Source: Escherichia phage RCIP0359. From it: a stretch of 59,541 nt of DNA. Under the pieces are notes generated by a model that did not search any database, was not told the DNA's origin, and worked only from the letters and a program-made list of their open reading frames with translations. Shown here in pieces: positions 56,496 through 56,743 of the stretch. The translations under genes and the position numbers were made by a program. Position 1 is the first letter of the stretch; every line of letters begins with the position of its first letter. The stretch is from the sequence record PV778520.1. One strand, written 5' to 3'.

Positions 56496-56557
56496 TTTTC
56501 TTGCTATCACATAACCCTTCATTGTATTGTGTACCCATCGAATAAGAGGGGTACACA

Positions 56558-56743
56558 ATGACCAAACTATACGCCGGATTGTTTTTATTTGCGACGTTAA
56601 TGTTCGCTGGGCTTTATACCTATACAGTAGTCGAACAACCTTCCACGGTTATCCGAATCTTTGCAAGTACAGGACTGTGCATCTGTCTTATTCTGTTTGT
56701 TTTATGTATTGTTATTATCCAAGACCAAAGGAAAATTAAATGA
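56558..56743 (+). CDS. small two-TM membrane protein
   Basis: 61 aa; two hydrophobic helices; RBS GAGGGG lies in 3' arm of an 8-bp hairpin. Confidence 0.45.
   Translation: MTKLYAGLFLFATLMFAGLYTYTVVEQPSTVIRIFASTGLCICLILFVLCIVIIQDQRKIK

Follow-up and report, generated by a model that had tools for sequence, protein, structure and literature searches.

An invariant hairpin predicted to occlude the first translation start of the gene block leading into lysis in Seuratvirus phages

Organization of the locus

The DNA analyzed here, sequence record PV778520.1 from Escherichia phage RCIP0359, is a window of 59,541 bp (the whole stretch under study) that represents a complete genome of the genus Seuratvirus (Queuovirinae), 93-98% identical to the E. 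coli phages CAjan, Seurat and PLYYY01 and to several BASEL phages. The element of interest is a hairpin near 56.5 kb, hereafter H1, which covers the Shine-Dalgarno sequence (SD) and the start codon of a small open reading frame (ORF). In this genome, the + strand carries the structural genes up to ~24 kb, and the - strand those for replication and 7-deazaguanine between 24 and ~52 kb. From ~52.1 kb, a + strand block runs through many small genes to H1, and then through genes for an HslV-like peptidase, the endolysin, a LydA-type holin and the spanins to terS. The terS gene starts at 59007 and crosses the window end (59007-59541 and 1-23), the window being a permuted full genome. H1 is found in a gap of 62 nucleotides (nt; 56496-56557), which is among the few sizable intergenic gaps and is located just 5' of the lysis/late part of the co-oriented block (Table 1). 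As one continuous + strand block leads from the small genes over H1 to lysis and on to terS and the structural genes, H1 stands where a transition from early to late expression would be expected. Moreover, upstream read-through is plausible, because the terminator scan predicted no strong intrinsic terminator between ~54.06 kb and H1, where it listed only weak 5-pair stems at 54469 and 55552.

Table 1. Coordinates in the window of the two hairpins, the putative promoter parts and the genes behind H1
Feature	Position	Strand	Remarks
Putative -35, TTGCTA	56501..56506	+	18 nt upstream of TATTGT
Conserved 5' flank, CCCTTCATTG	56515..56524	+	near-invariant in all lineages, unlike the 3' flank
H1 5' arm, UAUUGUGUACCC	56525..56536	+	first 6 nt, TATTGT, are the putative -10; 0 substitutions in 7 lineages
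H1 loop, AUCGAAUAAGAG, 12 nt	56537..56548	+	inner 2-bp helix 56538-39 / 56546-47; A56537 is the predicted transcription start
SD of the small ORF, GAGGGG	56546..56551	+	read from the sequence
H1 3' arm, GGGUACACAAUG	56549..56560	+	includes the start codon, 56558-56560; invariant in 7 lineages
Small ORF, 61 aa	56558..56743	+	phrog_22841, function unknown; two predicted transmembrane segments; stop overlaps next start (ATGA)
HslV-family peptidase-like gene	56740..57204	+	phrog_1040, E = 5e-32; relatives' annotations
86-aa gene	57205..57465	+	phrog_23528, function unknown; last gene before H2
H2, 20-bp interrupted stem	57490..57552	+	occludes the endolysin SD GGAGG (57535-57539) and ATG 57548
Endolysin gene	57548..57985	+	phrog_873, E = 2e-63

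Structure and stability of H1

Positions 56529-56556 read GTGTACCC-ATCGAATAAGAG-GGGTACAC, exactly as given in an earlier note on this DNA, which had described an 8-bp perfect stem with a 12-nt loop. That stem is real and forms the core of the element. The inverted repeat, however, is longer, with 11 perfect pairs between ATTGTGTACCC (56526-56536) and GGGTACACAAT (56549-56559), and RNAfold extends it to 12 bp by a U56525·G56560 wobble and adds a 2-bp inner helix (U56538-A56547 and C56539-G56546), giving a 36-nt hairpin with a predicted free energy (dG) of -19.3 kcal/mol. The full stem thus pairs all three bases of the start codon (56558-56560), instead of ending 1 nt before the ATG at 56558 as the note had proposed. 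Likewise, of the SD GAGGGG that it had placed in the 3' arm, the GGG is found there, while the other half lies with the inner helix, where its GA is paired. Per-base unpaired probabilities across the SD are 0.00-0.11, except for G56548 (1.0), the mismatched base between both helices.

In relation to the rest of the genome, H1 is exceptional. It ranks 2nd in stability among ~19,800 40-nt windows of the + strand, and perfect inverted repeats of 11 bp or more (loop of up to 20 nt) occur five times in the window, versus 0.25 expected from Markov shuffles. When analyzed in a 105-nt context, H1 has z = -2.0 versus dinucleotide shuffles. The mean unpaired probability from SD to AUG (here termed accessibility) is 0.16 at H1, as compared to a genome mean of 0.49 (standard deviation 0.15; 98 crude gene starts); the crude gene caller chose the wrong frame at the H1 locus, and the ORF at 56558 was scored separately. 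We consider it likely that the RNA hairpin blocks initiation on transcripts that carry both arms. The translational repression put forward in the earlier note is therefore borne out as to the conserved structure, which pairs SD and AUG and is predicted to keep the 30S subunit away from such transcripts, while repression itself is something that we infer.

Conservation of H1 among relatives

All 34 GenBank Seuratvirus records match the H1 region, and every record fetched carries H1. The two divergent ones, Salmonella phage STP-SP5 and Hafnia phage yong3 (DNA ~70% identical over the region), are the most informative. A search of a large protein collection with the HslV-like protein added six further lineages (66-73% identity), with contigs of four of them reaching H1, so that 7 H1-bearing lineages are available in total, their HslV-like proteins being 63-73% identical. 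Scans of IMG/VR and of JGI/ENA metagenomes with the same protein for further divergent relatives returned just those at least 98% identical, followed by a drop to less than 40%. In Nonagvirus and Craquatrovirus both the intergenic gap and the small ORF are missing, and hence there is no H1 homologue.

Substitutions were counted as the minimum number of changes per column over the 7 lineages, using alignment A6, as MAFFT had misplaced the gap of yong3. The two 11-nt arms show no change in 22 columns. By the same count, there are 12 changes in the 12 columns of the loop, 21 in the 26 columns of the upstream flank and 7 in the 6 columns of the downstream flank. The loop measures 12 nt except in yong3 (11 nt), and its first two bases, AT, are invariant. 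The conserved block of the upstream flank, CCCTTCAYTGT, runs to T56525, the first base of the 5' arm. Moreover, the hairpin is kept in all 7 lineages, with dG between -18.6 and -20.7 kcal/mol and accessibilities of 0.08-0.16. Taking as reference the structure-constrained arms of a second hairpin, H2, which precedes the endolysin gene (see below), ~6 changes would be expected in the H1 arms and none was seen (P ~0.002). The conservation of the H1 arms thus exceeds what pairing alone explains.

Some details of the alignment bear on the molecule in which the element acts. In yong3, the ATG lies 2 nt further downstream and is still paired, as the AUGU of the 5' flank pairs with the shifted start codon and the stem grows to 15 pairs via U·G, G·U and A-U; the opposite strand could not form the extra U·G and G·U pairs. 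In addition, the inner UC/GA pairs that grip the SD persist, in a shifted register, in four lineages (L189-L194). Together, the U·G closing pair, the maintained inner pairs and the extension of the yong3 stem favour a role of H1 as + strand RNA, as far as this can be read from sequence comparison.

The gene block behind H1

The earlier note had recognized a gene for a membrane peptide with two transmembrane segments behind the hairpin. This gene is real and conserved, its product being 51% identical in STP-SP5. Its tie to H1 is looser than had been assumed, as H1 of yong3 precedes an unrelated soluble ORF of the same length (61 aa, at 1624-1809 of the yong3 sequence, L009), the product of which is non-hydrophobic. 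An ATGA overlap joins the last small ORF to the start of the HslV-like gene in every Seuratvirus lineage, and for this reason H1 is better described as heading a gene block than a single gene. The HslV-like gene is probably translationally coupled to the small ORF. Other variations were observed in this interval: four metagenomic lineages (L189, L192, L193 and L194) have the membrane ORF followed by an additional 72-aa ORF, and in phage SeppeHuegi the small ORF and the HslV-like gene are separated by an inserted homing-endonuclease gene.

As to the small ORF itself, nothing in the analysis identifies it as a holin, the annotated holin of this genome being the LydA-type gene at 58022. A comparison with type I toxin mRNAs of the hok/tisB type finds a small hydrophobic peptide and an occluded SD here as well. 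Unlike toxin-antitoxin loci, the small ORF is coupled into an operon by ATGA, and no minus-strand promoter-like site was listed within the ORF or its leader, a statement limited to the consensus scan.

A second hairpin at the endolysin start

Approximately 1 kb downstream, H2 covers the SD and the start codon of the endolysin gene. It has a dG of about -30 kcal/mol and z = -4.5, and the accessibility of the endolysin start, 0.065, is the lowest among the 98 gene starts when ranked by this measure. Over 10 sequences, 93% of the H2 cells are paired, versus 44-60% after sliding the partners. The SD and the coding sequence fix the 3' arm, and the substitutions in the 5' arm are mostly transitions between G·U and G-C or A-U; lineage L194 has a distinct 5' arm, again with the anti-SD CCTCC. 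The apical part of H2 reads TTGCGC-18-TGtTACCCT, kept as TTGnnn-18-TGnTAnnnT in every lineage including L194, and transcripts starting at this promoter-like site are predicted to have their accessibility raised from 0.065 to ~0.45.

Non-homologous 12-bp hairpins with the endolysin SD in the 3' arm were also found in the Nonagvirus phages JenK1 (L010 2975-3012) and JenP1 (L011), and in the Craquatrovirus phage PSTCR7 (L012 2210-2255). Hence, occlusion of the SD ahead of lysis genes seems to be a recurring habit of this phage group, which in turn supports an RNA-level role for H1. The stems of JenK1 and JenP1 are followed by a U run and are terminator-like.

A putative promoter inside H1 and the proposed mechanism

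The 5' arm of H1 coincides with positions -12 to -1 of a candidate sigma70-like promoter, TTGCTA-18-TATTGT. The arm begins with the putative -10, the six bases TATTGT (56525-56530), which include the key A-11 and T-7, and the predicted +1 is A56537, the first base of the loop, so that the invariant AT of the loop corresponds to the predicted +1 and +2. The flank at 56515-56524 would be the 3' half of the promoter spacer. Six of the 7 lineages retain TTGC(T/C/A)A at 17-18 nt from TATTGT, with variation in the 5' half of the spacer. For transcripts starting at 56535-56540, the predicted accessibility from SD to AUG is 0.57-0.61, versus 0.16 for read-through RNA.

Taking these features together, we propose that H1 acts in cis as an RNA stem-loop in the leader of a block composed of the small membrane ORF, the HslV-like peptidase gene, the 86-aa gene and the lysis cassette. 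On RNA reading through from the small + strand genes upstream, the 12+2-bp helix would pair the SD and AUG and exclude the 30S subunit, so that the first ORF, and probably also the ATGA-coupled next gene, would remain untranslated. Relief would be transcript-specific: the embedded weak promoter would start RNA at A56537, and such transcripts would lack the 5' arm and carry the SD in a free 21-nt leader. The earlier note had proposed that the structure is melted or cleaved, which appears incomplete, since it omits what seems the likeliest route, namely transcripts starting inside the hairpin. We infer both the read-through transcripts and a real promoter. Relief by the embedded promoter, taken separately, is a tentative proposal, somewhat short of an even chance; for the combined model, in which H1 silences translation on read-through RNA and transcripts starting inside H1 relieve it, we see the chances as evenly balanced.

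This model would also account for the invariance of the arms, because the -10 and the discriminator would fix the 5' arm, the SD, spacer and AUG would fix the 3' arm, and pairing would transmit each constraint to the other side. Only ~3 bp of H1 would then be left constrained by pairing alone. The 5' arm of H2, unlike that of H1, would drift freely since it is located in a promoter spacer.

Several observations weigh against this model. The candidate promoter is weak, with 8 of 12 hexamer matches, and is not listed by the consensus promoter scan. With a position weight matrix (PWM) for sigma70, which is approximate, being built from consensus frequencies, it scores 8.4 bits, a value equalled or exceeded by 207 sites in the genome, which corresponds to p ~0.1 for a 62-nt gap; for the candidate in H2, the PWM gives p ~0.4. 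The putative -35 of yong3 is poor (TAGCCT), and the conserved CCCTTCAYTG sits in the promoter spacer, where conservation is unexpected. The temporal class of the genes upstream of H1 is assumed from the layout, and a literature search found no transcript maps or expression data for Seuratvirus. In addition, covariation is absent, as 11 of the 12 pairs never vary, and the alignment by itself cannot prove pairing in H1 because the stem is invariant. Lastly, invariant arms around a free spacer, with a length of 12 bp in 6 of the 7 lineages, are the classic pattern of a DNA operator.

Searches with H1 and its parts

The promoter scans found no promoter that stands out in the genome. One promoter-like site, TTGACA-16-TATGGT at 57329 inside the 86-aa gene, was discarded, its TTGACA being a conserved codon string and its -10 not conserved. 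The possibility that H1 belongs to a repeated promoter or operator family was also set aside: 15-16-nt pieces of it, with up to 3 mismatches, match H1 alone, and its 8-mer occurs at chance frequency. A replication origin at H1 was rejected as well, given that the GC skew shifts just at the strand-switch points, ~24 and ~50 kb, with no shift at 56.5 kb.

Rfam 15 gave no match near its gathering threshold; a single weak match, rli47 on the opposite strand (10 bits vs gathering 200, E = 8.7), overlaps H1, and those found elsewhere in 55500-57500 are just as weak. An operator of a host regulon was likewise rejected, the palindrome being absent from 185,579 bacterial species genomes; a relaxed 18-nt palindrome had 26 matches versus ~35 estimated by chance, none of them in Enterobacterales. 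A pattern scan of IMG/VR gave 12 matches, comprising 3 Seuratvirus and 9 unrelated contigs. Several nearby, intergenic copies of TGTGTACCC / GGGTACACA were seen in the unrelated contigs L096, L104 and L106 (about 5090-5165 in L104), L097 (2285-2330) and L101 (5620-5700), and one TGTGTACCC-bearing unrelated contig looks like a Bacteroides-type phage. The TGTGTACCC copies of these contigs are probably hairpins or operators of other systems that share the 9-mer by the design of the search. No paper mentioning the H1 motif was found in the literature.

Alternative explanations

An occluding structure that is real and conserved could also serve as a translational operator present on all transcripts of the block and opened in trans, either through a cut by a nuclease such as host RNase III or through melting by a phage protein. 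Cleavage by RNase III activates some occluded leaders, and another route of relief would be needed if the weak promoter is not real. The invariant arms suggest that the sequence is read, the conserved ~10 nt directly 5' of the stem offer a possible protein site as in the mom leader of phage Mu, and H2 (20 bp, one internal mismatch) matches RNase III substrates in size. Nevertheless, the 12 bp of H1 are near the lower substrate limit of that enzyme, and a variable loop on an invariant stem is the reverse of what is seen in known protein-read RNA operators, such as those of MS2 and PP7 and boxB, in which the protein reads loops and bulges. As, moreover, no candidate RNA-binding protein was identified, the flanking proteins having no informative family matches, a trans-acting factor is in our opinion an unlikely explanation. 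The invariance of the arms is put to a different use if the palindrome works in DNA, with the 11-bp arms as half-sites of a dimeric phage or host protein, which would control a promoter at the junction or mark where the late operon begins, and the RNA hairpin as a by-product or a second layer of control. The operator-like pattern mentioned above and the excess of conservation over the structure-constrained arms of H2 (P ~0.002) both speak for this possibility, the palindrome would span the putative promoter from -12 to +23, where repressors typically bind, and H1 is kept even though the downstream gene of yong3 was swapped. On the other hand, such an operator would be single-copy, with no second site in the genome at up to 3 mismatches in 15-16 nt, and no DNA-binding family matches were found among the adjacent genes. 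The 11-bp spacer of yong3 would rotate the half-sites by ~34 degrees, and half-site centres 23 bp apart are unusual for a simple dimer. The G·U extensions exist on the + strand only and track the shifted ATG of yong3, and the inner helix pairing the SD is maintained. A DNA operator is therefore decidedly unlikely to be the explanation. We also regard as very unlikely a two-level switch unique to Seuratvirus, where the DNA palindrome, as an operator or a qut/put-like loading site, would control through a putative regulator the single promoter of the whole late operon (lysis, terminase and virion genes) and the RNA would lock the first ribosome-binding site (RBS), with late transcription and translational timing both set by one 36-nt element.

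The position of H1 ahead of the lysis genes may, by analogy, recall an antitermination entry signal of a single late operon, like qut at lambda pR' or the put sites of HK022, which would modify RNA polymerase so as to pass internal terminators, among them that behind the endolysin gene. Much as in the late operon of lambda, the lysis cassette is followed here by packaging and structural genes on one strand; H1 occurs once in the genome and does not vary within the genus, and terminator-like hairpins (e.g., 57991-58004) do exist inside the block. In addition, the corresponding position in Nonagvirus is taken by a gene of 114-117 aa, whose Klebsiella-phage homologue weakly matches a "late transcriptional activator" PHROG (E = 2e-4). 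However, proteins resembling Q or N were not found, H1 lacks the two stems of the put elements, being one simple hairpin, and matches no Rfam family, and the exact overlap of the arms with SD and AUG would be left unexplained, all of which makes antitermination highly improbable. Finally, a stable hairpin in an intergenic gap after a stop codon might be taken for an intrinsic terminator or an RNA thermometer. Neither strand has a T/U run behind the stem (3' flank, GACCAAACTATACG), and H1 is absent from the terminator scan. RNA thermometers are marginally stable structures that melt at 37-42 °C (range about 30-42 °C), whereas H1 is a perfect 12-bp helix with a predicted dG of -17.2 kcal/mol at 42 °C and -10 kcal/mol at 60 °C, being folded to about 60-70 °C; neither function is in any way credible to us.

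Neighbouring genes and other features

Just 5' of H1, a 141-aa gene (56070-56495, phrog_4049) displays, by eye, a papain/C39-like Cys...His pattern, with no Pfam match, and the gene at 55201-55593 encodes a protein with a SLOG/YAcAr domain (PF10686). Together with the HslV-like peptidase gene, these two genes form a conserved cluster. Further upstream, the ~430 nt at 52819-53251 are apparently non-coding, their sole ORF having an odd, low-complexity translation. This region contains a perfect 13-bp inverted repeat (52846-52858 / 52872-52884) with a 13-nt loop, flanked by four iteron-like CGCACAGCG repeats, and may represent a replication origin or a regulatory region.

Downstream of the endolysin stop codon (57985), a terminator-like hairpin, GGGGCGTCAGCCCC followed by T5, is located at 57991-58004, before the start of the LydA-type holin gene (58022). 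An in-frame ATG at 57989, in the region of this hairpin, would add an 11-aa extension with an Arg, and the holin gene could be a dual-start holin/antiholin with a structure similar to lambda sdi.

Significance and comparison with known systems

H1 is most likely an RBS-sequestering phage leader, a known type of control, and involves no new principle; what sets it apart is its absolute conservation and its occurrence alongside H2. Together, both hairpins are clean, conserved leaders, amenable to experiment, that probably mark the switch into the lysis/late block. For annotators, they point to the start of the late block, and for phage engineers they offer a compact cassette that would prevent the expression of toxic lysis or membrane genes from read-through RNA. 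Regarding the Queuovirinae, phages with 7-deazaguanine-modified DNA that include several BASEL phages, no gene-expression map was found in the literature.

Among well-studied leaders, the mom gene of phage Mu carries a translation-inhibition structure that hides the SD and the start codon, and the Com protein binds immediately 5' of the stem and melts it. H1 likewise hides the SD and start codon and has a conserved segment directly 5' of the stem, but a Com-like zinc-finger protein was not identified here, and there is no homology. Lambda S, which also encodes a small membrane protein in a lysis region, has its initiation tuned by RNA folding at the start site, namely the sdi stem-loop; sdi selects between the nearby S107 and S105 starts, whereas H1 has one start and a much higher stability. 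In the replicase operators of MS2 and Q-beta, a conserved sequence contains the start codon, as in H1, but their 7-bp stems are read via loop and bulge bases, and the loop is the variable part of H1. As to DNA sites, those of phi29 p4, inverted repeats 15 bp apart, share with H1 the conserved inverted arms and free spacer over a putative promoter. H1 differs in being single-copy, in having a spacer that is not strictly fixed, in arms that match the SD and AUG, and in pair extensions of the RNA type.

The closest parallel is the arrangement demonstrated by experiment for gene e of phage T4. There, early read-through RNA folds a hairpin over the lysozyme ribosome site, while late RNA from promoters inside the DNA of the 5' strand lacks that strand and is translated, with I-TevI behaving alike (PMC3014915). 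H1 likewise pairs the SD and AUG, and both are found at or near lysis genes. Some differences should be considered: the embedded promoter of T4 is a gp55-dependent late promoter (TATAAATA) with mapped ends, while that of H1 is a weak sigma70-like match from sequence; the T4 hairpin is followed by a lysin gene, and H1 by the small membrane ORF, which in yong3 is replaced with an unrelated one; and there is no sequence homology between the two, the arms of H1 being invariant across the genus. H2, which stands before the endolysin gene, is a direct functional analogue of the T4 hairpin and is closer to it than H1. If the T4-like model is true, transcript-specific unmasking of an RBS, documented mainly in T4-type myoviruses, would extend to unrelated, sigma70-dependent siphoviruses.

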